A DNA stretch of 49,580 nt from Candidatus Doudnabacteria bacterium (GCA_963840645.1 CAWIZL010000003.1:1-49580), one strand, 5' to 3'; counted from the stretch's first letter, positions 4,467-30,032 are shown. Translations and numbers: made by a program. Notes: generated by a model from the letters alone, not told the origin.

Positions 4467-7006
4467 ATGCCCGTACTCTCAACTCTAACACTGCTCTACC
4501 TGCTCCTCGCCGTTCTGGTGGTTGGCTTGGCGGCGGTGTTTTTTTACTTTTACGCAAAGCACAGGAAGCTCATGGGCTTCACCGTGCCGCGCTTCAAAGA
4601 GTCGGTGTTCCTCGAAATCCAAGTGCCAAAAGACATTGGCGATGCTGACATGGGCAAGTCATCAGGCAGCAGCGCCGGCGCGGGTGGGAGCGATGACCAC
4701 ACCAAGCAGCTCATCTCAGTTGCAGAGCAGCTGTACACCGCGCTGTCAGAACTCACCAATGGTAAGTCTGGCAAGCGCGGCGTAGAGTACCTTTCATTTG
4801 AGATCGCAGCCGTGAACCAGAAAATTGGGTTCTACGTGAACTGCTCGCCAGCTGTGCGTGGCCTCGTAGAAAAGCAAATCCACGCGCAGTACCCGTACGC
4901 GCACGTTGAAGAGGTTCGCCCGTACAACCCGTTCCCAAAAAATTCTGTTCAGGCCAGCGCAAAGCTCACCACCAAGAAGGGCTACTTCTACCCGTTCCGC
5001 ACGTACAAGGAAACAGAGACAGATCCGCTGAACGCCATCACCAACGCAATGTCAAAGCTCGGGGCGGGTGAGAGCGCCGTGCTCCAGCTCGTCATTAGCT
5101 CTGCCGGCAGTTCGTGGCAGTCAAAGCCCCGTAAAATGGCGCTCGAAATTCAGCAGGGTAAAACGCCAGAGCACGTTGACCGCGGCGACTTCCAGAAGTT
5201 TGCAGGGGAGCTGGTGAGTGCCGCAAAGGGAAAAAGTGACAGGCAGGCAGACCACAGCAAAGACTTAACAGGCTTGCACGCGCCAATAAACCTCACGCCG
5301 CAGCAGCAAGAGGTGGTGAAGCGGCTGGAGCAGAAGGCGAGCAGGCCTGGGTTCCGCACGAACATCCGCCTCATCACGTCAGCGGGTACGCAGGCAGAGG
5401 CAGACAGCAAAATGCGCGACGTTGTGTCATCGTTCGTGCAGTACGCACTGCCGCCGTTCAACAGCTTCAAGGTGGCAAAGCAGAACGACCGCCACGTGCT
5501 GCTCGACTTCATCGTGCGCGGTTTCAACGACATTGGCATGATCCTGAACACAGAAGAACTCGCCAGCATCTGGCACGTGCCAACGCCAATGATTGAGACG
5601 CCGAACGTGAAGTGGCTCACGTTCAAGAAGCTGCCACCACCAATCAACATGCCAAAGGACGGCGTGAGCCTGGGCGTGAACAGCTACCGCGGCGTGAACA
5701 CTGAGGTGAACATTTCGCGCGACGACCGCCGCCGCCACATGTACCTCATTGGCCGCACTGGCACTGGCAAGTCAAACTTGATTGCATCTATGGCAGGCCA
5801 AGACATCTTGAACGGGGATGGCGTGTGCGTAGTTGACCCGCACGGCGATTTAATAGAAAACATCCTCGAGCGCATTCCAAAAGAGCGCGCTGATGACGTC
5901 ATTTTGTTTGAGCCGTTCGATGTGGAGCGGCCAATGGGGCTGAATATTTTAGAAGTTCACGGCGAAGAAGAGAAAGACACTGTCGTGCAGGAAATGATAT
6001 CCATTTTCTACAAGCTCGTCACAGACCCTGCAATGCTCGCCCAATGTTTGAGCACAACATGCGCAACGCAATGCTCACGCTCATGGCAGACGGCGAATTT
6101 CCAGGTACCATCACAGACATCCCGCGCATCTTCACTGACACAGAGTTCCAGAAGTACAAAGTAGCAAAGCTGCAAGACTACGTTGTGCGCGCGTTCTGGG
6201 AAAAAGAAATGGCAAAGACCTCAGACTTCCACAAGTCTGAAATGCTCGGCTACCTCATCTCTAAAGTCGGGCGCTTTACAGAAAATTCTATGATTCGTAA
6301 CATTGTTGGGCAGGCAAAGTCCTCGTTCAACTTTCGCGAGGCAATGGACTCTGGAAAAATTCTTCTGTTGAACCTTGCAAAGGGCAAGACAGGGGAGATA
6401 AATGCAAAACTTTTGGGGTTAATCATTGTGTCAAAGCTGCAGATGGCAGCCTTAGGTCGTGCGAACGTGCCTGAAGACGAGCGCCGCGACTTTTTCTTGT
6501 ACGTTGACGAGTTCCAGAACTTCATCACAGATTCGTTCGCTACCATTCTGTCTGAGGCGCGCAAGTACCGCCTGAACTTAATCATTGCGCACCAGTACTT
6601 AGGCCAGCTTGAATCTGCTGCGGGGTCGCAGGGTGCTGCAACCAATTCACTGCGCGACGCCGTATTCGGCAACGTGGGCACAGAGGTGTGTTTCAGAATT
6701 GGCGTTGAGGATGCAGAGACAATGGCAAAAGAGTTCTCGCCAACTGTGAGCGCGTACGACCTGGTAAACATTGATCGCTTCAACGCGTACTCAAAGTTGA
6801 TGATACAGGGCACAGCTTCAAAAGCGTTCAACATGGCAGTGCGCCGCTTGCCAGACACAGCGTCAAAAGAGCGCGCAGCTGCCATTCGACAGCTGTCACG
6901 CTTGAAGTACGGCAGGCCGCGCGCAGAAGTTGAAGCAGAGCTGTCGGCAAGTGCACACGCGGCCGAGCGCACCCAGGCCATTGATTTGCCAGCAGATGGG
7001 CGGTAG
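4467..7006 (+). CDS. membrane-anchored VirD4/TraG/HerA-like (DUF87/TrwB-type) ATPase; frameshift near 6045
   Basis: N-terminal TM helix, Walker A GRTGTGKS, VVDPHGDL, Walker B FFLYVDEFQNF, LSEARKYRLNLIIAHQYLGQL, FGNVGT. Confidence 0.85.
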
Positions 7007-14789: not shown

Positions 14790-14807
14790 ATACGCACAAT
14801 TAATAAA

Positions 14808-15969
14808 ATGAAAAACATGAAAGCGGCGTACGGAAAATTTTTACTAGTTGACGTGGCAGTAGTTGTCGCAGTGGCCGTTCTCGGCACCGCACGTGCAACC
14901 TCAGCTGCTGACCTGCGTAGCATGGGCAGTGGGCAGTACCAAGACAGCACGCTCATTGTCCCAGCATCAGAGTCTGTGCACAACCTGTACGCAGTTGCCC
15001 CTCAAGTTGTGGTTGATGCGAGCTCGTCAAAAGATACTGTTGCTGCTGGTGGAAGCGTTCAGATTGACGGCGCAACAGCAGATGATTTGATTGTAGCAGG
15101 CGGCACAGTTGAGGTTCGCGGCAACGTTGGCGGCAGTGCCCGAATTGCAGGTGGCAACGTGACCATTGATGGAAAAGTTACTGAAGACTTGGTTGTAGCT
15201 GGCGGAACTGTGATAGTGTCTCCGGCAGCATCTGTTGGCGGTGACTTAATAGTGGCTGGTGGTTCTGTTGTTGTTGAGGGGCCAGTGAGTGGCAACGTGG
15301 CAATGGCTGGCGGTAGCCTCGTGTTGAACGCAAAGATTGGCGGCAGCATCAGCGCAAAGCTCACCAAAGATCTGCAGCTTGGACCATCAGCTGATGTTGC
15401 TGGAGGCATTGCGTACACGGCACCTGAGCAGGCAAACGTAGATTCAGGAGCACACGTGGCAGCCTGTGACGTTCACGCAGCATCCATCGGTGAGTGGTGG
15501 AAAGTGGCTCGGGTTATTCTTGCTCGCACTTGCCCTAAAAGTTTTGGCAGAGATCTTGGCTGCGTACGTGCTGTACTTCATGTTTAGGCAGAAGTTTGAC
15601 CAGCTCGTATCAGCAGTCACAGCTGGCTTCTGGAAGAACTTTGGGTACGGCTTCTTGTTCGCCATTGCAGTTCCTGTGGCAGCTGTCATCCTGCTGTTCA
15701 CGGTGGTAGGGTACTACGTTGCAGTGCTTGCGGCCATTGGCTACGCGTTTGCGCTGCTGGCTGGCTGGCTGGTTGCCGGCGCGTGGTTTGGAGTGTGGCT
15801 CGCGTCAAAGGCAAAGCGCCACGTTGTTGAGGTTGGCTACGGGACCATTGCGCTGGGCATTGCAGTTGCAACCCTGCTCACGGCAGTGCCGTTCATTGGC
15901 TGGCTCTTTGGAGCCATCGTATTCTTGGCAGGCTTTGGTGCTGTTGCCAGGAACCTGCGCAGCGCTTAG
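14808..15969 (+). CDS. polymer-forming (bactofilin-like) beta-helix repeat protein with multi-TM C-terminus; frameshift near 15460
   Basis: signal/TM N-terminus, repeated DLIVAGGTVxVxGNVGG units, hydrophobic C-terminal half ending VPFIGWL..GFGA. Confidence 0.8.
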
Positions 15970-16017
15970 AATACTACTCGGCACGTTTTACTCACACGAT
16001 AAACAAAGGACAAAGAC

Positions 16018-16299
16018 ATGGGACTCATTGACCAGATGAAGGACATTAACTCAATGCGCCAACAGGCCAAGCAGATGCAGCTGGTGCTCGGCCAAGAGCA
16101 GATCATGGGGCAGTCAAAGGATGCCATGATCCGCATTGTGATGGACGGCAACCAGGAAATTAAGAGCGTAGAGGTCATGGACGACGTTGTGGGAGACCGC
16201 AAGCGCATTGCAACAGACATCCGTGAGGCGCTCGTTGACTTAAACAACGGATACAAGAAAGTGCTCTCATCGAAGTTTGGCAGCATGATGGGGAGCTAG
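16018..16299 (+). CDS. ybaB: YbaB/EbfC nucleoid-associated protein
   Basis: QQAKQMQLVL..GQSKDAMIRIVMDGNQEIKSVEV pattern, 93 aa. Confidence 0.8.
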   Translation: MGLIDQMKDINSMRQQAKQMQLVLGQEQIMGQSKDAMIRIVMDGNQEIKSVEVMDDVVGDRKRIATDIREALVDLNNGYKKVLSSKFGSMMGS

Positions 16300-16324
16300 T
16301 ACAAAAAACTGTGTACAAAAAATT

Positions 16325-16359
16325 GGGTAGCGCCGCGGATTGCCTCCGCGGCGCTACCC
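16325..16359 (-). terminator. intrinsic terminator downstream of tonB
   Basis: 15-bp perfect stem GGGTAGCGCCGCGGA/TCCGCGGCGCTACCC with T tracts following on the minus strand. Confidence 0.8.
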
Positions 16360-16367
16360 TTGCTTCA

Positions 16368-17099
16368 CTACTGCAAGGTGAAATTGACGTCAATCGTCGT
16401 GATCACCTCGACACGTTCTCCGTTGAGGAGCGTTGGGCTGTACTGCCACTGCTCGACTGCCTGCATTGCTGACTGCACCAAGAGTGGAGGCCCACCCAAG
16501 AGCTGCAGGTTTTGAATGGTCCGATCCTTGGCGATGGTGGCCTGGAACCTCACCGTACCCTGCACCCGAGCTGCTTTTGCCATTGCTGGGTAAAGCGGCT
16601 TTGGCTGTTTGATGAGGTTGGCCATCTGAACGTTGCCACCTACGCGAAGAGGTTTTTGAACTTCGGCAACCTTAACCTTTGGAGCGGGTGGGGTTGGCGG
16701 AGACACTGCGAAGTTTCCGCTCAATTTCCCGATATCTTCATTGGAGGACGGCAGACCATTTGAGACTGTGTTGATTGGTGCTTGGGGTTCATCTTCGAAC
16801 ACAATCTTGATCTCCTTTGGAACCTTGGTAGGCTCAACGAAGTAGTTGGTCGGGATGCGCGGAGCCTTCACCACATTTTTTTTTACCGTAACTACTTTTG
16901 GCGGCGGCGGAGGCGGCGGTGGTGGAACGTTCAAGAACGTCGGCGTCTGCACTTGCGGCAGAGCGTCAAAGTAAACCAGCGGCAGGACTACCAGAACAAC
17001 GATCGCTGCGAGCTGGCCGAGAAGTGAGAACAGGATAGTGTAGGTGCGCTTCGTTTGCCCCACACCGTCAACCAGAGAACCTTCGAAGAGTTCGTTCAT
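16368..17099 (-). CDS. tonB: energy transducer TonB family protein
   Basis: single N-terminal TM, poly-Pro linker, TonB C-domain PKPLYPAMAKAARVQGTVRFQATI..AVEQWQYSPTLLNG..VNFTL; AAGGAGG SD upstream. Confidence 0.9.
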   Translation of the reverse strand: MNELFEGSLVDGVGQTKRTYTILFSLLGQLAAIVVLVVLPLVYFDALPQVQTPTFLNVPPPPPPPPPKVVTVKKNVVKAPRIPTNYFVEPTKVPKEIKIVFEDEPQAPINTVSNGLPSSNEDIGKLSGNFAVSPPTPPAPKVKVAEVQKPLRVGGNVQMANLIKQPKPLYPAMAKAARVQGTVRFQATIAKDRTIQNLQLLGGPPLLVQSAMQAVEQWQYSPTLLNGERVEVITTIDVNFTLQ

Positions 17100-17275
17100 G
17101 TCTTTGCAACCCCTCCTTTAGAGGCTACCTCATGTCAAAGGTGCTCACTGTGAACCGCGTTTGCAAGCTGCCATGACGGTCAGGGCAAGCGCGTCGCGAA
17201 CGAAAAGGGTTTTTCCACCCAATCTGACCTAGGTATACATCTGCCAAAAAATTCGGTCAAATAAGTTATGCACCT

Positions 17276-17747
17276 CTACCGCTGGCCGTCGTGCCGTCTT
17301 GCAATGAGCATGATGCCAAAAACGATGACCAGTATTCCAAGAACCTGTTCAAAGCTCACCTGTGGGTAGAAGCCGTTCAGCAAAAGAAATGCACCGAAGA
17401 TAATAATGATCAAGCCGAGGAAGCTGTGCGCGTGGTTGTGGTTGGACTGCATTCTGCTGCGCAGATCATTGAGGTGGTCGTTGAGGTTTTCTGACCTGTG
17501 CGCTCCGTGGTACGCGCTGCTGCTCATTGGCTGCGCAGCTGAGGCAGGTTCCAGCAGCGTGCTCTTCGGGCAGCACAATCCACAGCACCAGGTAGAGCAG
17601 GATGCCACTGCCGCCTGCAAATCCGAGCAACAGGAACAGGACGCGCACGAGCACTGGGTCTGTCTCAAAGTGTTCTGCAATACCGCCGCACACGCCCCCA
17701 AGAATGCGGTTCGTCGATGACCTGTAGATTCTCTTGTGTAGCGCCAT
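17276..17747 (-). CDS. pspC: PspC-domain membrane protein; frameshift near 17570
   Basis: RIYRSSTNRILGGVCGGIAEHFETDPVLVR..YLVLWIVLPEE, then C-terminal TM pair. Confidence 0.85.
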
Positions 17748-17761
17748 GCGGTTTTTTGGCT

Positions 17762-18083
17762 TTAGCTCAGGTGCGGCGTGAGCGCTGCCAGAATCATTTG
17801 CTTTGGCGCAGCTCCAACAATCTCACCAACTATGGTGCCGCCCTTGAAGAACTTCAAGGTTGGAATGCTCATGATGCTGTAGCGCATAGCAATTTCATTG
17901 TTGTCGTCAACGTTCACCTTGCCGACCTTCAGCTTGCCGGCGTACTCTTTTGCGATTTCATCGACGATTGGCTCCACTGCCTTGCACAGTTCCGCACCAC
18001 GGTGCCCAGAAGTCGAGCATGACCGGAATGTCAGACTTCATGACTTCTTTCTCAAAGTTTGCGCTCGTAATTTCAATTTCCAT
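17762..18083 (-). CDS. trxA: thioredoxin; indel at the active site
   Basis: [32 protein letters not shown].., [15 protein letters not shown]. Confidence 0.9.
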
Positions 18084-18182
18084 TGTACTTTGTATCGTTA
18101 AAGCTCTGGTTTTACAGCTCTTGCATTTTATCCACAACGGAGAGCGTTGTCAACGTTCCACTGAGCAGCTATGCTTTAGCAA

Positions 18183-19148
18183 ATGGATGGTTCAGAAAAA
18201 GAAACAAAAATAAAAAGTTTGTGGCGCGCGGCAACGTGCACGGCAGTTTTACTGGCTGCGCTGTTCCCAAACCCCGCGGGCTTCAAGGCAGCAGAGCAGC
18301 CATCCGAAAAGCCAGGTGTCGTGCTCGGCGCGTACACAAGTGTTCCAGAAATTAGCGCACCTGCCGCTCGCTCTGTTGAGATTGTTCCGCAGGGTGGCAG
18401 CACGGTAACGCTCAAGACCACGGCAAGAGAAGTTTTGGTGTACGACCTTGCCAGTGGCCAGCTGCTGGTCTCGCAGAATGCAGACCAGCAGGTTCCCATT
18501 GCATCGCTCACCAAGCTCATGACAGCCCTGGTTGTCTACCAGAGCCCAAATTTTGATGTGCCCATTACCGTGGCAAAGCAAGACCAGGTTGACGTTGAGC
18601 CAACGCTCCACCTGAAGGTGGGGGATAGGGTAATGCCAGAGCAGCTCGTTGAGGCAATGCTCCTCGGCTCTGCGAACGATGCCGCAAACACACTGGCAAA
18701 CCACTTTCCAAACCAGGCAACGTTCTTGGGCGAGATGAACGCAACGGCCGCAGCTCTCGGCATGGACAGCACGCACTACACGACGCCAATTGGCTTTGAC
18801 ATTGCTGGCAACTACTCCACTGCCAGCGACCTGGCAAAGCTGGTGAACGCTGCGCTGAAAGTTTTGCCGTACGACCAGGTGTGGCAGAAGCAGAGCTACT
18901 CGTTCACGAGCCTGAACGGGAACGCCTACTCTGTCGAGAACAGCAATGCGCTCGTTCGTGCAAACCCAAACATCTTCTCCATAAAGACAGGCCAAACGCC
19001 CGATGCGCTCGGCAACATGATTGTTGAGGCAAAGGGCAGCGCAGGCCAGAGCATCATTTCAATAGTGCTCGGCAGCACTGACCGCGACGCAGACACACTT
19101 GCGGCAGTTGACTACACGTTCAAGGTGTTTACCTGGCAGCAGGTTTGA
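18183..19148 (+). CDS. D-alanyl-D-alanine carboxypeptidase (peptidase S11)
   Basis: SxxK (IASLTK), SxN (GSAND), KTG motifs; N-terminal signal/TM. Confidence 0.9.
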   Translation: MDGSEKETKIKSLWRAATCTAVLLAALFPNPAGFKAAEQPSEKPGVVLGAYTSVPEISAPAARSVEIVPQGGSTVTLKTTAREVLVYDLASGQLLVSQNADQQVPIASLTKLMTALVVYQSPNFDVPITVAKQDQVDVEPTLHLKVGDRVMPEQLVEAMLLGSANDAANTLANHFPNQATFLGEMNATAAALGMDSTHYTTPIGFDIAGNYSTASDLAKLVNAALKVLPYDQVWQKQSYSFTSLNGNAYSVENSNALVRANPNIFSIKTGQTPDALGNMIVEAKGSAGQSIISIVLGSTDRDADTLAAVDYTFKVFTWQQV

Positions 19149-19179
19149 GCGTGAACGTGGTATAATGTGAGCACGACAC

Positions 19180-20215
19180 ATGAGCTACCAACTCCTAAAA
19201 ATACTGCTGCTGACAGCGTTTTCTTTCGTATTCAGCTTCGGCATCACGCCGATCTTCACGCAGCTCCTCTATAAATACAAAGCAGGCAAGAAGGTGCGCG
19301 ATGACGGCACAACGCCAATCTTCAGCGCGCTCCACGCGTCAAAGAACGGCACGCCGAACATGGCGGGCATACTCATCTGGTTCACGACCGGCTTGCTCAC
19401 CACAGTGTTCTGGTTCTTGGACACGCGTTGCGCACGTCAGCGCGTTCCACTTCCTCAACTTCCTCGACCGCCGCGAGACCCTCTTGCCGCTCGGCGCGTT
19501 CCTCGGCGCATCGCTCATTGGCCTTGCCGATGATGCGCTCGACTCGCGCAACCTCGGCCACAAGGGTCGCGGCATCCGCATGCGGCACAAGATTATCCTG
19601 TACGCAATCGTCGCGGCCATCGGCGCCTACTGGTTCTACTTCAAGCTCGGCTTCAGCGCGCTGTACGTTCCGTTCTACGGCAACGTGAACCTGGGGTGGC
19701 TCTACATCCCGTTCTTCATCTTCGTCGTCATTGCCACCAGCTTCTCAGTGAACGAGACAGACGGCCTCGACGGTTTAGCTGGCGGCGTGCTGCTCGTCTC
19801 GTTCTTCGCGTACACGCTCATTGCGTACGTTGGCGGGTACTACGACCTCGCGGCGTTCCTGTGCGTGGTCATCGGCAGCCTGCTCGCGTTCCTGTGGTTC
19901 AACATTCACCCGGCAAAGTTCTTCATGGGTGACACTGGGTCAATGGGGCTCGGCGTGCTGCTCGCCGTCGTCGCGTTCTACCTCAATGCGGTCGTGGTGC
20001 TCGTGGTAATTGGCGGCGTGTTCGTTGTCGAGGCTCTGTCGTTCCTGCTGCAGATCTTCTACAGGAAGGTCTTCAAGAAAAAATTGCTCCTCTCAGCCCC
20101 GCTGCACAACCACCTCCAGGCAATTGGCTGGGCAGAGTCACAGGTTGTCATGAGGCTCTGGATCATTTCCATGGTGTGCGCGATCCTCGGCGTGGTCATT
20201 CACTTTGCAGGCTGA
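19180..20215 (+). CDS. mraY: phospho-N-acetylmuramoyl-pentapeptide transferase; frameshift near 19430
   Basis: KNGTPNMAG, GLADD, NETDGLDGLA, FNIHPAKFFMGDTGS, APLHNH. Confidence 0.95.
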
Positions 20216-20328
20216 ACGCGAGTATAACAGTATACAGTATTCACTAGCTAAATTAGGTCTATGCTACCAATCAAAATAAAAACTATCTCAAGTCGTCTAC
20301 TGTATACTTACACTAACTACTTGCCCCC

Positions 20329-21910
20329 ATGTTCTCAAAAATAATTCGCAACGCAACAGTGGTAGACGGCACGGGCGCAGCCCCGCGCACTGCAGACGTG
20401 GCAATTGACGGCGATAAGATAGCGCAGGTCGGCAACCTGGCAGGCGCGTCTGCACAGCAGGAAATTGATGGCACAGGCAAGTACCTTGCCCCAGGCTTCA
20501 TAGACATCCAGAACCACTCTGACGTGTACTGGCTGCTGTTCGACAATCCAACAGCAGAGAGCATGGTAGCACAGGGCATCACCTCTGTCGTAGTCGGCAA
20601 CTGCGGCGCATCGCTCGCGCCAATACTTGGACCTGACGCGCTGCTGTCAATTCAGAAGTGGCACGACCTCAGCGGCATCAACGTGAACTGGGCAACGGTG
20701 GACGAGTACCTCAGCGCGCTCTCAAAGCTGGGGCTCGGCGTGAACGTTGGCACCCTCGTCGGCTACTCAACCCTCCGCCGCGCAATTGTCGGCGACGAGT
20801 CCAGGCAGCTGGACGCTGGCGAGCTCGCCTCTGTGCACCAGGCAATCCGCACGGGCATTCAGTCTGGGGCGTTCGGCGTGTCGTCTGGGCTTTCGTACAC
20901 CCACGAGTCGAGCATCACCACAGAGGAGCTCGCAGCCCTCGCAAACGTGGTGAAGGGCAGCGGCGCGTTCCTCTCGGCTCACGTGCGGTCTGAGGGTGAG
21001 CGGCTCGTCGAGGCAGTCGGAGAGGCGCTCGGCATTGCGGTGCAGTCTGGCGTGAGCCTAAAAATTTCACACCTCAAGGCTTCAGGCCGTGAGAACTGGC
21101 CAAAGCTGCCAGCTGCAGTTGCCATGCTGGAGCTGCGCGGCAAAGGCTCACGGCAACGTGGCGTTCGACGTGTACCCGTACAACTTTGTCTGGCAGGTGC
21201 TCTACATATACCTGCCAAAGTGGGCGTACCAAGGCGGGCGGTCATCGATGATTGCAAACTTAAAAGATCCCGCCACGCGCACAAAAATTTTAGACTACCT
21301 CGCGGGCGCACGGCAGGGCTACGCAGACCTCATCGTGACGAACACGTCAATGCCCATGAACGTGAATGGCAAGACGCTCGGCGACGTTGCCGGAAGGCTG
21401 GGCACAACCACAGAGGAAGCGCTGCTGACGCTGCTCGAGAACGGGGGCACCGAGGTGATGGTGTTCGATGAGTCAATGGACATGCACCAGGTGCAGCAGC
21501 TGGTGTGCCACCCGCTTTCGATGGTGGTCACAGACGGCGCAGGTTTCCCGCTGAACTGGAAGCACGGCTTGGTACACCCGCGCTCTTTCGGCGCAATGCC
21601 TAAGCTGCTGGAAATGGCGCTGTCTGAAAATTTGCTACCCATTGAGCAAGCCGTGCACAAAGTTACCGGCGCGCCAGCAGAGCTCTTCGGCCTTGCGGGT
21701 CGTGGCAAAATTGCACCTGGGTACGCAGCAGACCTGGTGCTCTTTGGCCAAGACGTGCACGCAACTGCCACAGCGCAGAACCCGTACCGTTTCCCAACTG
21801 GCATTCAGCTGGTGCTGGTGAACGGCACCGCAGCTGTTGAAGGTGGGCAGCTCATTGCTGGTGCATCGCCGCGCGGGCGTGGCAAGGTGCTGCGGAAAGG
21901 TGCAAGCTAG
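20329..21910 (+). CDS. N-acyl-D-amino-acid deacylase (D-aminoacylase, amidohydrolase); frameshift near 21135
   Basis: VVDGTG..ADVAI, PGFIDIQNHSD, GITSVVVGNCG, SAHVRSEG, ISHLK, HPRSFG, GRGKIAPGYAADLVLF. Confidence 0.9.
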
Positions 21911-23326
21911 TGAGCCATTCAATTTTTACAAGGCAGGCGAGTTGGCATTGTTGGCTTTGGCGTTGAGGGGCAGGCTGTTCTATCGTACCTCTCGAGCCAC
22001 GGCATTGCAGACGTCAAAATTTTTGATAGAAACCCAGAGCTGGCAAATGTCCCAGGCTACCTTGAGCACGTGGGCGAGTGCGACGTGCTCTTCAGGTCGC
22101 CCGGCGTTAGGCTCGACACGCCGGAGATTCAGGCAGCTGCAGCTGCTGGCACAGTGGTCACGTCGCAGGTGAAATTTTTCCTGCAGAACTGCAGCTCTAT
22201 GGTTGTTGGCGTGACCGGCACAAAGGGCAAGGGCACAACGTCCAGCCTCATCCACGCAATGCTCCAGGCATCTGGCAAGACGTCGCACCTCGCCGGCAAC
22301 TTTGGCGTTGGCGTGCTGCCGCTGCTCGATGTGCTGGCGCCAGAAGACTACGTTGTGCTCGAGCTGTCCAGCTTCCAGCTCATGGACGTTGACCGGAGTC
22401 CGCACGTTGCAGTGGTGCTCATGGTGACGAGCGCGCACCTCGACTACCACGAGACTGGCGAGGCGTACGTTTCAGCCAAGGAGAACATTACAAAGTTTCA
22501 GTCCTCGAAAGATTTCTCAGTGGTGAACGTGGATTTCCCGAGCTCTGTGAAGATTGGCTCGCTTGGCCATGCCCAGCGCTACTACGTGCAGACGGTTGAT
22601 AGAGAGCAGGCTGCCAGTGGCGCATCGTTTGCGGTGTACCAGCCAGAGAATTTTTTGAAAATAAAAGAAGGGGTGTACGCAGAGCAGGTGAACGGCGGGA
22701 TTTACAATGTCGAGAATGGCACCAGCGTGCGCATTGCTGCCGTGGGCGATTTCCAGCTGCGGGGCTTCCACAACGTTCAGAACATTGCAGCAGCGCTCGC
22801 GGTGTCAGATGTTTTAGAACTAGATCTGCAAAAATCTTTGGCAGCAGCAAAGGCGTTCAGAGGTTTGCCACACCGCTTAGAGCTGGTTGGCGAAGCTGGT
22901 GGCGTGCAGTTCTACAACGATTCAATTGGCACGACACCAGACAGCGCGCTCGCAGCTGTGCGTGCGTTTGCAGAGCCAGTGGTGGCCATTGTTGGAGGAC
23001 ACGACAGCGGCAGCAGCTACGTTGACATGGCGAACCACCTCAGCCGCCAGAAAAATTTAAAGGCTGTCGTGCTCATTGGCGAACTCGCACCCGCGATTCA
23101 GCAAGAGCTGGAGGGTCACGGCTTGCCAAAAACTGTGCACGTGGCAACTGGTGCAGCTTCCATGGATGAAGCTGTTGAGCAGGCGGCAAACTTTGCATCG
23201 AGCGGAGACGTTGTGGTGCTCGCACCTGGAGCCAGAGCTTTGGCATGTTCAAGCACTACAGAGACCGCGGCGAGCAGTTTCGAGCTGCTGTGGCAAGGAG
23301 GGGCGCTTAAGTGGTATCCGCTGTAA
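21910..23326 (+). CDS. murD: UDP-N-acetylmuramoyl-L-alanine--D-glutamate ligase; indels at both ends
   Basis: VGIVGFGVEG, FRSPGV, VTGTKGKGTT, VLELSSFQL, AHLDYH, GLPHRLE, FYNDSIGT; GTG 21910 overlaps the upstream TAG. Confidence 0.95.
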
Positions 23327-24458
23327 AAAAACATATTGCACGGGCGCACGGGCGCCTCGCCCACGTTGACTACTGGATGGTGGGCACTGTTACAGTCCTG
23401 CTCTTGTTCGGCCTCGCGGGTCCTGTACTCTGCGTCGACGGTCCAATCGTACACGGTGACAGGCCACTCGAACGCCTACTACTTCTTGCACCAGTTGGTG
23501 TACGGGGGCTTGGTTGGCGTCGTCCTCGCGTACGTGTGCAGCCGCATTGACTACCACTTCTGGCAGAAGGTGGCGCCGTGGGCAATCCTCGTTGCTGTTG
23601 CACTGCTCGTGGCTGTGCTCGTGCCGCACGTAGGCATCAAGGTTGGCGGCTCGCGCAGGTGGCTGAGCATCGGGCCGCTCGGCGTGATCCAGCCAGCAGA
23701 GCGTGAAGCTCGCGCTCGTGTTCTACATTGCATCGTGGGTTGACAGGCGCTCGGCTCAAATAGACAACTTCGTGTACGGCGTGCTGCCGTCGCTGGCCAT
23801 TGCAGGGCTCTGCAGCCTGCTCATACTCATAGAGCCAGACGTCGGCACAATGCTCGTGGTTTCCATTACCGCGCTCGTGATGCTGTTCGTCGGGGGCACG
23901 CAGGTCAAGCACCTGGGGGCAATTCTCGGCATTGCCGTTGTCGCGTTCTTGGTGCTCGTGGCTGTTGCGCCGTACCGCGTGGCCCGCTTCACCTCGTTCA
24001 TGAACCCAACTGCCGACACGCAGGGGATTGGCTACCAGGTGACGCAGGCAAAGGTTGCCATTGGCTCTGGCGGCCTGTGGGGCTACGGCTACGGCAACTC
24101 TCAGGCAAAAGACAACTACCTGCCAGAGGTCATGGGCGATTCCATTTTTGCCGTCACGGTTGAAGAGCTCGGCGCCATCGGCGGCAGCCTCGTGGTGCTC
24201 GCGTTCGTGTTCTTTGCGCTGCGCGGGTTGCTCATTGCACGCGGGGCGCCAGATACGTTTGGCAGGATGCTGGCCACTGGCATTGTGACGTGGGTCACCG
24301 TGGAGGCGCTCATCAACATCGGTGCTATAATAGGTCTGCTGCCGCTCACGGGCATTCCGCTGCCGTTCATTTCGTACGGGTCTTCAGCGCTGACCGTGAC
24401 GCTCGCCGCAGTGGGAATTCTGCTAAACGTCTCAAAGCACAGTGACAGCACCTACTGA
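23311..24458 (+). CDS. ftsW: SEDS peptidoglycan glycosyltransferase FtsW; indels near 23420 and 23700
   Basis: GGSRRWL, QPAE, EPDVGT, GYQVTQAKVAIGSGG, YLPEVMGDSIF, GIPLPFISYGSS. Confidence 0.9.
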
Positions 24459-26680
24459 GAAACAAAAATTTTTTGACATGGGGGGCATGGCGCTCCGGCA
24501 GCCGCCGCAGCGGCAGCTTTCTGCTGCTGAAATTATGGCGAAGCTGGATCCAGCAGAACTGTCGCACGAGGAGCTGGCAGAAGAGCCACGTAGTGAAGCT
24601 GAACCAGATGATAGGAACTTTGGCCTGTACGTAGAGCACACTGTATTTCGCACGGTGAATACTGCTACACCCCGCCGCAGCCTGCAGTGGCGCAGCCTCT
24701 TGCCCCAGCTGGCAACGTTCGCCGTTGTTGCCATTGTGGTGCTCGGTTCAATTCAGGGCGCAAAGATTTTTGCCTCAACGCTGCAGGCGCGCTCAGTGGT
24801 GCTCGGCGCTGCGACGAACGCCATTGCGCACTTAGAGTCAGCGCAGTCGCTCATTGGGCAGAGCAACATTGCGGGTTCACAGCAGCAGCTCACGCTCGCG
24901 CAGCAGGGCTTCAGCCAGGCCCAGCAAAACTTGCAGAGCCTAGGTGGCCTGCTCAACGGCGTTGTGCTCGCGAGCGTTCAAGGCCGCAGCGCATCGAGCC
25001 TCATTGACGCTGGCAGCGCAATCACCGCTGCTGGCCAGCAGCTTGCCTCTTTCTACTCGCTCAGCTCAGAGCTGACAGTGAACGTTTCCGGCGTCTCTGC
25101 CCAGGCAACGCAGGGGAAGCCCCAAAGTTTTTCTTCAACTGCAGCGTCTGCTGCTGGCTACCTGAGCGCAGCGCACGATGATGTCCAGCGTGCGAGCCAA
25201 GACATCCAGCAGGTTGACCAGCGCAGCCTGCAGCTCCAGTACCGAGCTGCGTTCGCGCAGTACAGCGCAGAGCTGCCCGCGCTGGCCGCCACGCTCGGCG
25301 ATGCATCAGGCGCGGTGAGCATGTTCTCGAGCCTCGTCGGGCCTGGCCAAAGTCAGTCCTTGTGCTCTTTGAGAACAACAACGAGCTGCGGCCTGATGGC
25401 GGCTTCATTGGCACGTACGGGTTCTTCAAGTTCAACAGTGGACAGATTCAGAGCCAGCAAATTTCCAGCGTCTACGACCTCGATGGGCAGCTCGCTGCCG
25501 GTGCGGCAAAGGTTGCGCCGCCCGGCCCGTTCTACGCTGCAACAGATTCTTGGGGGCTGCGCGACTCAAACTGGTTCGCAGACTTCAGCCAGTCCGCGAG
25601 GGCGGCATCGAGCTTCTACGAGGAGACTGGGCACGAGACACCTGATGCAGTGGTTGCCATCACGCCAGACGTTTTCGTTGACCTCTTAAAAATTACAGGT
25701 CCAATCAATTTTCCAAAGTACAACGTGACGCTCACCTCTGGTAATTTCCGCGACCTCGTGCAGGAGAACACATCTGACCAGGCGTCTGCTGCGCCAAAGC
25801 AAATGCTGTCAGATTTTGCGCCGCTCCTCATGCAGCACGTGGCCTCGCTGCCCGGCTCTGACTCTGGAGCAGTCCTCGGAGTGCTCGTTCAAAACTTGGC
25901 GGATAAAAACATTCTGCTGTACTCGTCAGACCCTGCTGTCGAGGCACGGCTCGTGCAGTACAACTGGGCAGGTACCATTGCGAACACGCCGCAGAACGGC
26001 GGCGACTACCTCGACATTGTGAACGCCAACATTGGGGGCGAGAAGACAGACCTGAGCGTGGCGCAGGCAGCGTCGCTCGGGAGCACCGTGCAGCAAGACG
26101 GCTCTGTGGTGGACACACTCACGTACACGCGGAGCAGGCCTCAAGGTTCGGCGGCAGGCGGCACGGACACAGACAGCACGGTCAACACAGACTACGTGCG
26201 CGTCCTTGTGCCAAACGGCAGCGTGCTCGTGAGCGCAACAGGCTTCACGCAGGAGCCGTACCATAAATCTGACGGGAGCGCGTACACGTGGGAGAGCCCG
26301 GCTCCTTCACCATTGACCCAGACCTCGCAGCCATTGATGCGACAGCGAGCGTTGACCCTGTCACTGGCACTGTCACAGAGCAGGAGGCTGGCAAGACAGA
26401 GTTTGCCAACTGGGTTGACGTTGCACCTGGCCAGTCTGCCACGGTGACACTCGTGTACAAGCTGCCGTTCAAGGTGGGGGATGCAGGCACGTACAGCCTC
26501 ACGCTGCAGAAGCAGCCTGGCAATAACCCAATTGATTTTTCGTACACGTTCACGCCCGGCCGCCAAATTATCTGGTACACGCCGAGCACGCTAGACAGCA
26601 CAGCTGTGCAAGCTGGCACGGTTCAGTACAGCGCGCCGCTGACCTCAGACACTTTTATAGGCGAGCTGTTCCATGACTAG
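24442..26680 (+). CDS. DUF4012-domain membrane-anchored protein; several indels
   Basis: TM helix, coiled-coil region, LFENNNELRPDGGFIGTYG, LRDSNWFADF, NIGGEKTD, YSLTLQKQPG across ORFs 24442..25689, 25362..26447, 26288..26680. Confidence 0.8.
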
Positions 26681-28256
26681 CATGACCAAGGGCAGCATTG
26701 CGAAGTCCGCCGCAACCATTGGCGTGTTCACGCTGCTCTCGCGCTTCGTGGGTTTGTGGCGCGACATCACCCTCGCGTCGCACATTGGGCCAGGCGATTT
26801 GCTCGACGCGTACAACGCCGCATTCCGCATCCCAGACTTCATGTTCAACCTGCTCGTGCTCGGTACGCTGTCGGTGGCGTTCATCCCGGTGTTCACAGAG
26901 TACTTCTTGAAGGACAAGGCAGAGGCAGAGAAAATTGCAAACACGGTGCTGAACGTCTCGTCCATTGCAATGGCTGTGCTCATGGGACTGCTGTTTATTC
27001 TTCTGCGACAGGTCACGGCAATCATTGTGCCTGGATTCACGGGCGCAAAGCTAGCAACAATGGAGTCGCTCACGCGGCTGTTCTTGCTGTCGCCAATTAT
27101 CTTTACCATCTCCAACGTGTTCGGCAGCATGCTGAACTCGTGGAAGCGATTCCTCATTACGTCCATTGCGCCGGTGCTCTACAACCTGGGGATTATTTTC
27201 GGCATCTACTTCCTGTACCCGCACTTTGGCGCAGCTGGCCTTGCGTACGGCGTGCTCATTGGCGCAGCGTGCCACTTGCTGCTACAGGCTGGGGCAGTGT
27301 TCAAGCTCGGCTGGCGCTACAGTCTAGACTTCGCCTGGCGCGACAGAGGAGTTGTGAAAATTTTTAAGCTCTTCGTGCCGCTCATCGTGAGCCTTGACCC
27401 AGGGCAGGTCAGCTTACTGATTGCAACCATCATTGGTTCCACGCTCGCGTCTGGCAGCATTTCCATTTTTAACTTGGCCAGCAACTTGGGTGCCGTGCCG
27501 CTGGGCATCTTCGCGTTCTCAGTTGCTGTTGCCGCGTTTCCAAATTTGTCTGAGGCGTACGCAAAGCGCGATGAGGTTGAGTTCGGCAACATCTTTCGCA
27601 GGTCAGCCATGAACATCCTGTTCTTCATTGTGCCAATATCGCTCTTGATGTTCGTGCTGCGCAACCAGGTTATCCAGGTTGCATTCGAGCGCGGGCTCTT
27701 CACGCAGCAGGATGCGGCTCTCACGGCAGCCTCATTTGGATTTTTCGCAGCCAGCATCTGGGCGCAGGCACTCGCATCGCTTTTGTCGCGCGTATTTTAT
27801 GCCAGGCAAAATACCATTGTGCCAGTGCTCACCGGCTTGGTTTCAATTGCCATTAACGCTGTTGGCGCTTACTTCTTAGGTCGAGCGTACGGCGTTGTAG
27901 GTTTGGTTGCAGGCTTCACGCTATCATCGTTCTTTGATGTTGGCCTGTTGGCAGTGTTCTTGCTGCCACGGTTGCCTAGCTTTGAGTTCAAGCCGTTGCT
28001 CACGCCAGTGCTGAAGTTGCTTGCGGCAAGTGCCGTGATGGCAGTTGCCACGTACGTTGCTCTGTTCCCAATCGCAGCTGCTATCCACCCAACAGGAACA
28101 ATCACCACATTCATTCAAGGCTTTGCAGCTGGCGTAGTTGGCATTGCGGTGTTCGCTGCGGCGGCAGCAATTTTAAAAATTGACCAGGCCAGGTACGCGT
28201 GGCGCATGCTTAAGGCAAAGCTTTTGCCCAGCAGGGGAACAATAGAGCCTCTGTAA
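26673..28256 (+). CDS. murJ: lipid II flippase MurJ (MviN)
   Basis: SRFVGLWRD, DAYNAAFRIPD, VAFIP, VPLGIF, RVFYARQNT; intact 527-aa ORF. Confidence 0.95.
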   Translation: MTSMTKGSIAKSAATIGVFTLLSRFVGLWRDITLASHIGPGDLLDAYNAAFRIPDFMFNLLVLGTLSVAFIPVFTEYFLKDKAEAEKIANTVLNVSSIAMAVLMGLLFILLRQVTAIIVPGFTGAKLATMESLTRLFLLSPIIFTISNVFGSMLNSWKRFLITSIAPVLYNLGIIFGIYFLYPHFGAAGLAYGVLIGAACHLLLQAGAVFKLGWRYSLDFAWRDRGVVKIFKLFVPLIVSLDPGQVSLLIATIIGSTLASGSISIFNLASNLGAVPLGIFAFSVAVAAFPNLSEAYAKRDEVEFGNIFRRSAMNILFFIVPISLLMFVLRNQVIQVAFERGLFTQQDAALTAASFGFFAASIWAQALASLLSRVFYARQNTIVPVLTGLVSIAINAVGAYFLGRAYGVVGLVAGFTLSSFFDVGLLAVFLLPRLPSFEFKPLLTPVLKLLAASAVMAVATYVALFPIAAAIHPTGTITTFIQGFAAGVVGIAVFAAAAAILKIDQARYAWRMLKAKLLPSRGTIEPL

Positions 28257-28276
28257 AAAAGTGTAAATATAAAAAA

Positions 28277-28297
28277 GGCACGCGAGCGGCGCGTGCC
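28277..28297 (-). terminator. intrinsic terminator for the 28305..28640 gene
   Basis: GGCACGCG/CGCGTGCC stem followed by TTTTTT on the minus strand. Confidence 0.65.
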
Positions 28298-28304
28298 ACG
28301 AGGT

Positions 28305-28640
28305 TCAGCGAGCCAAGGCAGCCAACAGTTCATCCTGGTGCTTTTCCCAGTCACGGTGCTTCAGGCACTCGTAGCACTTTAGGTGAACCCACGGTATCTT
28401 CTTCACCTGTGTCATGAAGACCTTCACCTGTTCTCGGTGAATGCGGTTTGTTACTGCGCCGTGTATTCTCAGGTGAACGCAGCTCAAGTTCAGAGCTGAT
28501 TTTTTGGAAAGAGACCAGTATCGCCTGTGCGTGTAGTTCTGGTCGAAGCTACAACCCAAGCCATCCATGAGCAACGTTATTTTCTTGACCGTACTTTTAA
28601 TGGCCGGCGTTGTCCCTATAATGGCCAGCTCAAAATTCAT
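28305..28640 (-). CDS. hypothetical basic protein (111 aa)
   Basis: AGGAGGA SD 6 nt before ATG, TGCTATACT upstream, terminator downstream; CYEC near C-terminus. Confidence 0.6.
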   Translation of the reverse strand: MNFELAIIGTTPAIKSTVKKITLLMDGLGCSFDQNYTHRRYWSLSKKSALNLSCVHLRIHGAVTNRIHREQVKVFMTQVKKIPWVHLKCYECLKHRDWEKHQDELLAALAR

Positions 28641-28732
28641 TCAGTATCCTCCTGGTTGGTTTTAGTACATCAGTAGTATAGCAGAAAGAAAACATGTACC
28701 GAAACTTGATGCCTGCTGGATGGCTGAACGTT

Positions 28733-29875
28733 CTACTCACTGAAAATATCTACGTACCTTTTGTATATGTAGGATTGCCCATATTTTTTATCCCCATCCT
28801 TTTTTGTAAGGATGCCCATTTTGACGAAACGGTTTATGACTGTCTGAGCGCCGACCCTTGAGAAGCCCGTCCACGCCTGAAGTAGCCCAACGTTTACAAT
28901 TGGTTGAGCGTAAAGCTTTGGTAAGACCAGAGCCGCACTCTCGGATGAACGTTTGCCGAGCATTTGAATCTTCATTAGATTTTTTTCACGCAGCGCGGTG
29001 ATTTTGCTTACCGTTACAATTGCCTCTTGCGCAATTTCAATAACACCGTCTAAGAAGAAGCCTAGCCACTCAGACACATTGCCAAAATGGTAACCAAACA
29101 GCTTCTCGTAGTAAAGCTTTTGGTTTCTCTTAAAGTAAGAAGATAGGAACAGCACAGGTTTCTCGAGGTAGCCTTCTTTCCAAAGGTAAAAAGTTATGAG
29201 CATTCGACCTGTTCTCCCATTGCCATCGAGGAAGGGGTGGATTGTTTCGAATTGCGCGTGGATCAATGCGGCTTTAACAGGTACGAGCGCTTGGTCATCC
29301 ACATGCATGAATTTTTCAAGATCACCAAGCGCGCCTCGCATTTCTTCAACTGGAGGTGGAACAAACCTTGCGTTGTCTGGGCGGGTTCCGCCAATCCAAT
29401 TTTGAGTTTTCCTAAACTCACCAGGGTCAGAGAAGTGGGTGGCACGTGCTTTGTGCATGAGCTGTTCGTGCAGTTCTCGTATGAAACGAAGAGAGATAGG
29501 GAAATCGTCTTGGGTTACCCTCCTCATACCGTAGTTGAGAGCTTGTATGTAGTGCAAAATGTCATCAACGTCTTCTGGTACATCTGCGTTTGCATGTGCC
29601 CCTGCCTCAATTGCATTGATCATTGTGGCCATAGTCCCTTCAATTTGACTCGAAGAAGCGGCATCTTTTCTGAGGTACATGAGCAAGAAAAAATCGGCAT
29701 CCGGTAAAAGTTTGGTGATGCCATCAAGTTTTCCAAGTAGCCGTGCTGCCTCTGTATTTTTCTTTAGAATTACTGGGTCAAGTTTAAGAGCCTCCACTGG
29801 AGGGAAAACTCCTGGAATAAAAGCCTTAAAACCTTCTTTTTGTTGCCTCAGATCCCCAATCTTTACCAGTTTCAT
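28733..29875 (-). CDS. Fic family protein (class II-like, with C-terminal HTH-like region)
   Basis: catalytic HPFLDGNGRTGR, N-terminal inhibitory-type SSQIEG. Confidence 0.93.
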   Translation of the reverse strand: MKLVKIGDLRQQKEGFKAFIPGVFPPVEALKLDPVILKKNTEAARLLGKLDGITKLLPDADFFLLMYLRKDAASSSQIEGTMATMINAIEAGAHANADVPEDVDDILHYIQALNYGMRRVTQDDFPISLRFIRELHEQLMHKARATHFSDPGEFRKTQNWIGGTRPDNARFVPPPVEEMRGALGDLEKFMHVDDQALVPVKAALIHAQFETIHPFLDGNGRTGRMLITFYLWKEGYLEKPVLFLSSYFKRNQKLYYEKLFGYHFGNVSEWLGFFLDGVIEIAQEAIVTVSKITALREKNLMKIQMLGKRSSESAALVLPKLYAQPIVNVGLLQAWTGFSRVGAQTVINRFVKMGILTKKDGDKKYGQSYIYKRYVDIFSE

Positions 29876-29876
29876 G

Positions 29877-29950
29877 TTTGCTTACATCTTTTTATGAATG
29901 TAAACAAAGTATATAGGTTTGTTTACATTTAGTCAAGCAATGTAAACAAA
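29877..29950 (-). promoter_or_regulatory. fic promoter overlaid by repeated operator-like boxes
   Basis: TTGACT (29936-29931), 17 nt, TATACT (29913-29908); AATGTAAACAAA at 29897-29908 and 29939-29950, inverted copy at 29918-29929, degenerate copy at 29877-29887. Confidence 0.7.
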
Positions 29951-30032
29951 CCACGTGGGGATAACTAAGAACAATCTAAAGTAATCATAAAATGCAATGA
30001 ATTTATAGATTCTTTTCTGCTATACTACCCCC

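Follow-up and report, generated by a model that had tools for sequence, protein, structure and literature searches.

The 49,580-bp stretch of Candidatus Doudnabacteria DNA analyzed here (the window) is the whole of contig C3 of a four-contig, 985-kb metagenome-assembled genome (MAG), which is 87.7% complete with a contamination estimate of 2.3%. Between the convergent genes ybaB and trx-pspC, it carries a gene for TonB, a textbook case of a protein whose role presupposes a diderm envelope and an ExbBD motor. The tonB open reading frame (ORF) is intact, and the encoded protein matches every one of the 51 columns that are invariant in an alignment of 35 Acidobacteria-type sequences. The gene is preceded by a Shine-Dalgarno sequence, and a terminator hairpin with its T-run (16359..16325, minus strand) lies directly 3′ of the stop codon; the hairpin was also recovered as an inverted repeat in a repeat scan. 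An initial annotation of this DNA had described an intact tonB with its own Shine-Dalgarno sequence, terminator, and candidate promoter. The first three elements stand, whereas the promoter could be confirmed only weakly: a candidate was picked out by eye, and no promoter upstream of tonB, TTGACC-17 nt-TATACC included, passed a strict sigma-70 consensus scan. Because trx-pspC immediately precedes tonB in the same orientation, co-transcription or read-through is equally possible. No Rfam elements were found around the gene.

The protein was assigned by domain searches and structure prediction. Residues 166-242 match PF03544 (TonB_C) with 63.2 bits (cut-off 24.6), and TIGR01352 is matched with 30.5 bits (cut-off 27.1). 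An AlphaFold2 model, built on 35 homologs, revealed the classical tripartite TonB architecture, consisting of a transmembrane (TM) helix, a disordered proline-rich linker, and a confidently predicted C-terminal domain (CTD). In a Foldseek search with the CTD model, the best match was 6i97_D (TMt 0.81, E = 1.5e-6), followed by 1u07, 1xx3, and 2gsk, and the top 16 matches were TonB/FusB CTDs; a sequence profile search of the PDB (hmmsearch) returned TonB CTDs only. The TM helix contains a polar pair, S25-x3-Q29, both residues of which are nearly invariant in the 35-sequence alignment, the donor family having S-x3-Q/E at this site, and Q29 is presumably equivalent to H20 of Escherichia coli TonB. 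The features by which the family is recognized, namely the TonB_C domain, the CTD fold, the single TM anchor with a proline-rich spacer, and the polar pair, are all present. TonB CTDs pair with their partners via β-strand augmentation. The tripartite architecture and the CTD fold are shared with the canonical TonB proteins of E. coli and Pseudomonas aeruginosa (1u07, 1xx3, 2gsk, and 6i97; TMt 0.66-0.81), as is a YP motif before the first CTD helix, although CTD identity to these proteins is only about 21-27%, and the polar TM residue is Q instead of the H of E. coli TonB (S-x3-H). Unlike E. coli and P. aeruginosa, the window genome is without ExbBD, TonB-dependent receptor (TBDT) clients, and a periplasm bounded by an outer membrane. 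Identity with TolA was considered and rejected: matches to TolA CTDs were weak (Foldseek E 0.25-3), no TolQ/R was found, and the genomic context is ybaB / trx-pspC.

Over its full length, the window TonB is collinear with “energy transducer TonB” proteins of Bryobacterales/Acidobacteriota, with 45-55% identity. A search of 5.8 billion protein clusters found 558 homologs, the best 120 of which were inspected for names; among these 120, the named ones were all from Acidobacteriota, Bryobacterales, or Bryobacteraceae. A scan of species genomes with the window TonB yielded four loci, all in Bryobacterales MAGs. The closest homologs examined sit in tgt-yajC-secD-secF-tonB-exbB-exbD-exbD-TPR-relA clusters on diderm contigs of ~60% GC. 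The primary TonB of Bryobacterales/Acidobacteriota (about 240-255 aa) is the first gene of tonB-exbB-exbD-exbD, downstream of tgt-yajC-secD-secF, and it has in common with the window TonB the MFEQxFVDG N-terminal box, the TM helix with S-x3-Q, the poly-Pro run, the VAPKxIPKE motif, RVGGNVQ, and the VNFTLQ end. The window gene differs from its Bryobacterales counterparts in being solo (no exbB/exbD downstream), in its degenerated Gly-rich linker, in a composition resembling that of the candidate phyla radiation (CPR), and in a host without outer membrane machinery.

In a careful maximum-likelihood (ML) tree of 41 sequences, with 200 bootstrap trees, the window TonB groups with the acidobacterial proteins P0002, P0003, and P0096 (support 99/99), and it has the sub-clade signatures YTIL, YFDALP, GPPL, and LVQSAMQAVxQWQY in common with them. 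The CTD of the window protein is 73-76% identical to those of P0002 and P0003, which are 77% identical to each other, and it keeps 55 of 62 conserved columns. The linker, in contrast, keeps 21 of 43 conserved columns and is 36-38% identical to the linkers of P0002 and P0003 (68% between the two), and the donor Gly-rich segment GVPGGVPGG..GGIIG has degenerated. Since tonB belongs to a universal operon in the donors and is patchy in CPR, the direction of transfer is from Acidobacteria to CPR. These comparisons support a horizontal capture of a Bryobacterales-type tonB from Acidobacteria as a solo gene. The resemblance to Acidobacteriota TonBs and the transfer from a diderm, both proposed in the initial annotation, are upheld by the sequence identity, the nesting in the tree, the exbBD operons of the homologs, and the empty site in a relative described below. 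The window TonB does not group with vertically inherited homologs, and TonB_C was found in none of nine genomes of the same family.

The insertion site was defined by comparison with a syntenic relative (LepA 91%), represented by independent assemblies from three samples, ENA scaffold_164 and two Logan assemblies (L023/L024/L025). Gene order in the relative and the window is collinear through an FNR-like gene, DUF8173, ybaB, pspC, trx, dacA, mraY, amidohydrolase, murD, ftsW, DUF4012, murJ, and lepA. Homology in blastn stops at 16292 and restarts at 17392, and this gap, together with the 88-bp spacer of the relative, indicates that ~976 bp, comprising the terminator, tonB, and 176 bp upstream, is an insertion, for which the relative has the empty site. 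The insert is bracketed by a 13-nt imperfect direct repeat (Table 1), which may represent microhomology or a target duplication; with ~0.5 such pairs expected by chance in 1.3 kb (an estimate), it is not statistically significant, and a target-site duplication is not claimed. Tandem 14-nt repeats, GTACAAAAAACTGT and GTACAAAAAATTGG, lie just 3′ of the ybaB stop (16299-16328), and the 14-nt and 13-nt repeats may be insertion traces or remnants of an ancestral bidirectional terminator. Elsewhere on contig C3, a Fic/DOC gene (28733-29875, minus strand) lies in a 1.8-kb low-GC (0.43-0.49) segment, 28257-30032, between murJ and lepA; the murJ-lepA gap in the relative is only 77 bp, and this segment is a second lineage-specific insertion.

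Table 1. Features of tonB, its product, and its insertion site in the window
Feature	Position	Strand	Remarks
tonB ORF	16368..17099	(-)	243 aa; stop TAG; internal stops, 0
Shine-Dalgarno sequence	17111..17119 (reverse complement)	(-)	AAGGAGGGG; ~10 nt 5′ of the tonB ATG
Intrinsic terminator hairpin	16325..16359	(-)	15-bp stem with 12 GC pairs, then AATTTTTTGT on the tonB strand
Weak candidate tonB promoter	17232..17260	(-)	TTGACC (17260-17255), 17 nt, TATACC (17237-17232); by eye
N-terminal TM helix, residues 19-45	16965..17045	(-)	AlphaFold2 helix, pLDDT ~90
Poly-proline run P59-P67, start of disordered linker	16899..16925	(-)	Read from sequence
TonB CTD, residues 152-243	16371..16646	(-)	pLDDT ~90; Foldseek; PDB profile search
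ybaB	16018..16299	(+)	Convergent with tonB; 92% identical to YbaB of the relative
trx-pspC	17276..18137	(-)	Upstream of tonB, same strand; both frame-split in this assembly
Inserted segment	16300..17275		976 bp, versus 88-bp ybaB/pspC spacer in the syntenic relative
13-nt imperfect direct repeat	16316..16328	(+)	CAAAAAATTGGGT; partner CAAAAAATTCGGT at 17245-17257; the pair brackets the insert

An insertion of this kind could also be produced by faulty assembly or binning, with acidobacterial DNA spliced into a CPR contig, and a join of exactly this type is present in the same assembly. The first 91.5 kb of contig C4 are compositionally foreign, with a GC content of 0.60-0.65 compared to 0.52 elsewhere and a tetranucleotide log-likelihood ratio of -0.13 compared to +0.12, and the switch near 91 kb is sharp. 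The inositol-3-phosphate synthase of this block is 94-97% identical to those of Terracidiphilus sp. MAGs, and the ORF spanning the switch (C4:90747-92243) is an in-frame fusion between a TIGR03435 (“Solibacter-type”) fragment and a fragment of the CPR WecG/TagA glycosyltransferase. C4:1-91.5 kb thus comes from a Terriglobales acidobacterium and was wrongly fused to CPR sequence during assembly, which makes C4 a chimeric contig. The block makes up about 9% of the assembly, an amount that the 2.3% contamination estimate understates, and it also contains a sigma-54 regulator beside a frameshifted TBDT gene. In addition, seven of the 13 genes in window 14800-26700 (DUF8173, pspC, trx, mraY, amidohydrolase, ftsW, and DUF4012) are frame-split compared with intact orthologs in the syntenic relative, with about nine frameshifts in 13 kb (~1 per 1.4 kb), a density that points to an indel-prone assembly, probably from long reads, and not to mass pseudogenization. 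A VirD4/TraG-type coupling-protein gene at 4467-7006 is likewise divided into two overlapping ORFs, TrwB_AAD_bind/DUF87 followed by TraG-D_C/T4SS-DNA_transf, and this split is probably another assembly frameshift.

The tonB segment behaves differently from the chimeric block by every measure applied. Its tetranucleotide log-likelihood ratio is +0.08, compared to a native mean of +0.12 (sd 0.06) and a foreign-block maximum of +0.027, and every 2-kb window of C3 scores as native. The GC content at third codon positions (GC3) of tonB is 0.619, compared to a native mean of 0.620 (n = 529) and to 0.72-0.75 in donor-type tonB genes. The best database identity of the window TonB is only 53%, unlike the 94-97% of the true contaminant, and the protein is of the Bryobacterales type, whereas the contaminant is of the Terriglobales type. 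An artefact would also require two precise joins, 976 bp apart, within an intergenic spacer with CPR synteny on either side, and similar solo tonB genes occur mid-contig in six independent assemblies of the same order. Chimerism of the tonB segment is therefore unlikely, to the point that we consider an artefact highly improbable, and a real insertion is favored by composition, identity, and synteny.

The CPR character of the genome, suspected in the initial annotation, is confirmed by LepA, which is encoded on the same contig as tonB, by the small 985-kb assembly, and by the absence of Omp85. LepA is 91-93% identical to metagenome proteins, and its best named matches, with ~80% identity, are from Candidatus Doudnabacteria and a Patescibacteria group bacterium. 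No exbB, exbD, or TBDT gene is present in the window, as had been stated before, and the absence of ExbB and ExbD extends to the whole assembly: MotA_ExbB (PF01618) and ExbD (PF02472) gave no match at E ≤ 0.1, and tblastn with donor-type ExbB and ExbD gave no accepted match. A marginal ExbD-like tblastn match at C4:326177 (E 0.044) was rejected, since it belongs to a coiled-coil protein. Omp85 (PF01103) was absent from the whole assembly in a search that was positive in seven diderm control genomes. The TBDT β-barrel (PF00593) was matched once in the assembly, in the frameshifted gene at C4:1860-5200, which was rejected as a native receptor, as it sits in the Terracidiphilus-like chimeric block; composition, the chimeric ORF, and the Terracidiphilus identity of the block assign it to the contaminant rather than to the CPR bacterium. 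Taken uncritically, a genome-wide search would count this block as evidence of a TonB-dependent receptor. Neither a stator, nor a native TBDT, nor Omp85/BamA machinery was thus found in the genome of the window, which has no native ExbBD/TBDT set and is not diderm.

A Ton-like system might still be at work, with partners that escaped notice because they lie in the missing 12% of the genome or have diverged beyond the reach of the models. Such a system would fit the completeness of 87.7%, and also the retention in the window TonB of S-x3-Q in the TM helix and of a fairly well conserved N-terminal region. This is hardly to be expected, however, given the negative searches with PF01618, PF02472, and donor ExbB/ExbD, among which the one weak ExbD-like match was a coiled-coil protein. 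Six relatives with similar TonBs, 94-99% complete, are also without ExbB, Omp85, and TBDTs, and no partner gene travels with tonB.

These relatives emerged from a survey in which TonB_C was found in nine of 61 genomes of this order, compared to seven of 401 sampled across the phylum. Robust copies, six in number (G035, G037, G044, G047, G049, and G056), match the window TonB in architecture and sit mid-contig in CPR DNA of 39-53% GC, with flanks that are syntenic with contigs C2 and C4 of the window's own genome. They occupy four further loci, one of which is shared by G047 and G049 and another by G035 and G037, the genomes of each pair belonging to different genera or families; in the window's own genome, all four sites are without tonB. 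The ExbB/ExbD stator is absent in eight TonB_C-bearing relatives. Less ameliorated copies are also seen: in G047 and G056 (L013, L015), tonB has a GC3 of 0.62-0.68 in surrounding loci of 0.41-0.47 GC, which marks these copies as less adapted to host composition than those of the window or of G035 and G037. Among the remaining matches, two Bacteroidota-like, lipoprotein-type TonB_C proteins on short contigs (L005, L010) of G055 (1.6 Mb, 160 contigs), and one TonB_C protein on a 2.6-kb contig (L009) of G031, are likely contamination. G037 additionally encodes a 127-aa secreted stand-alone TonB_C protein (L011) at the start of a 247-kb contig.

The recurrence of tonB in the order raises the question of vertical inheritance, in which TonB would be ancestral to the order, through a single ancient capture or as a vestige from a diderm ancestor, and would have undergone many losses and relocations. 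The enrichment of TonB_C in the order and the loci shared by two genome pairs across genera or families are consistent with such a history, and a tree that unites all CPR copies survives an approximately unbiased (AU) test (p = 0.13 and 0.19 with the careful tree, and 0.59 with a quick tree). In the ML tree and in all 200 bootstrap trees, by contrast, the window TonB is separated from five other CPR copies (branch 97/92), and the CPR copies are monophyletic in 0 of 200 bootstrap trees. The window copy instead nests among acidobacterial proteins, carries the signatures of their sub-clade, and has diverged far less than its CPR counterparts; moreover, tonB occupies five different loci across the order, the site is empty in the closest relative, and same-family genomes are without the gene. 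We regard vertical inheritance as very unlikely. Since the AU test leaves a single clade unrejected, the count of independent captures leans mainly on synteny. Multiple independent captures are favored, but not proven, by the tree, the five distinct loci, and the empty site, and CPR-to-CPR spread is an alternative for some of the copies.

The selective regime acting on TonB was compared between domains through nonsynonymous divergence (dN) only, since synonymous sites are saturated in all comparisons; the N-terminal region comprised 45 residues. Between the CPR copies of G035 and G037, which share a locus, dN is 0.16 in the CTD (70/92 aa identical) and 0.92 in the N-terminal region (13/40 aa identical). 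For G047 and G049, also at one locus, the corresponding values are 0.31 and 1.22, and for the acidobacterial pair P0003 and P0011, they are 0.21 and 0.36. These divergences show, at the level of sequence, the pattern of a CTD under purifying selection in motor-less CPR lineages, with a motor-contact N-terminus that drifts. Between the window TonB and P0003, dN is 0.156 in the CTD and 0.32 in the N-terminal region. The window TonB keeps S25 and Q29, a donor-like N-terminus, and the 51 invariant positions, and decay is confined to its linker. It thus has the look of a more recent capture, and of a young member of a recurrent class of solo tonB genes.

A genuine transfer might also have left a neutral passenger, with no function in CPR and on its way to loss. 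The absence of motor, receptor, and outer membrane, the degenerate linker, and the presence of this tonB in one known genome and in none of nine from the same family are what would be expected of such a gene, and incomplete Ton systems of monoderms have been regarded as likely non-functional (PMC12204202). The ORF, however, has remained intact in an assembly with ~1 frameshift per 1.4 kb, all family-invariant residues are retained, and CTD dN to the nearest homolog is as low as 0.156 with saturated synonymous divergence. Complete amelioration of its composition implies that tonB has been resident for a long time, and the gene is equipped with a strong terminator and a Shine-Dalgarno sequence of its own. 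Related orphan copies with a conserved CTD have also persisted across the divergence of CPR genera and families. On balance, a decaying passenger seems unlikely, though it should be kept in mind.

With moderate confidence, we favor an explanation in which a Bryobacterales-type tonB was captured horizontally, and the resulting motor-less TonB has a CTD that serves as a static, membrane-anchored binding module. A solo tonB from a Bryobacterales-type donor operon inserted into the 88-bp spacer between convergent ybaB and trx-pspC, after the Doudnabacteria-like lineage split from its closest sampled relative, and then ameliorated to host composition. Canonical energy transduction would not be possible, because an ExbB/TolQ/MotA stator, Omp85/BamA, and a native TBDT are lacking in the window's own genome and in the six relatives. 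The N-terminal helix would hold the TonB in the cytoplasmic membrane, and the proline-rich spacer would project the CTD through the wall. The CTD would be the selected part, and is probably a static module that pairs with its partner by β-strand augmentation. Candidate partners include a component of the CPR's own envelope, such as peptidoglycan or a surface protein, and a molecule of an acidobacterial host or neighbor. Contact with host outer-membrane receptors, a possibility raised in the initial annotation, is pure speculation. Simple contact at the surface is also difficult to envisage, since the Ton box of such a receptor points into the periplasm of the host.

Several observations weigh against a captured and functionally retained TonB. 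The absences were scored in a genome that is only 87.7% complete, and there is some residual chance that a stator has diverged too far for the Pfam models to recognize. The assembly holds one demonstrated CPR/Acidobacteria chimeric join and many indels. Only one genome is known to carry the window copy (one cluster member), selection on it is read through acidobacterial homologs and not through CPR siblings, and its decayed linker also fits early gene loss. No conserved partner gene adjoining tonB was found in the six relatives, and a single CPR clade is left standing by the AU test.

TonB has been listed among the features generally missing from Patescibacteria (PMC7137472), and no description of an orphan TonB in CPR was found in the searchable literature. 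A 2025 phylogenomic study of TonB and TolA (PMC12204202) reported incomplete Ton systems in monoderm Actinobacteria, Bacilli, Caldiserica, and Dormibacteria, called them likely non-functional, and left unclear whether they arose by horizontal gene transfer or as vestiges; CPR/Patescibacteria were not mentioned. The window tonB resembles these cases in that Ton components occur without an outer membrane. In contrast to them, its donor clade could be named and its insertion site located, an empty counterpart of that site is known, and purifying selection is domain-specific in related CPR copies. Capture without the motor, recurrence in the order, and CTD-specific selection together point to an ExbBD-independent use of the TonB CTD, which would contradict the default view of monoderm Ton remnants as non-functional (PMC12204202).

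The consistent acidobacterial donor also provides a concrete lead to the hosts or partners of soil Doudnabacteria. A bolder proposal, which we hold to be distinctly unlikely, is that soil Doudnabacteria-like CPR are episymbionts or parasites of Bryobacterales that have repeatedly captured the primary tonB of their hosts without its motor and display the CTD, which has stayed host-like, as a docking or “plug” module. If this were true, the docking CTD would recognize Ton-box-type β-strands of host envelope proteins, for instance in the service of envelope breaching or nutrient piracy, and the phylogeny of orphan TonBs would become a readout of CPR host identity.

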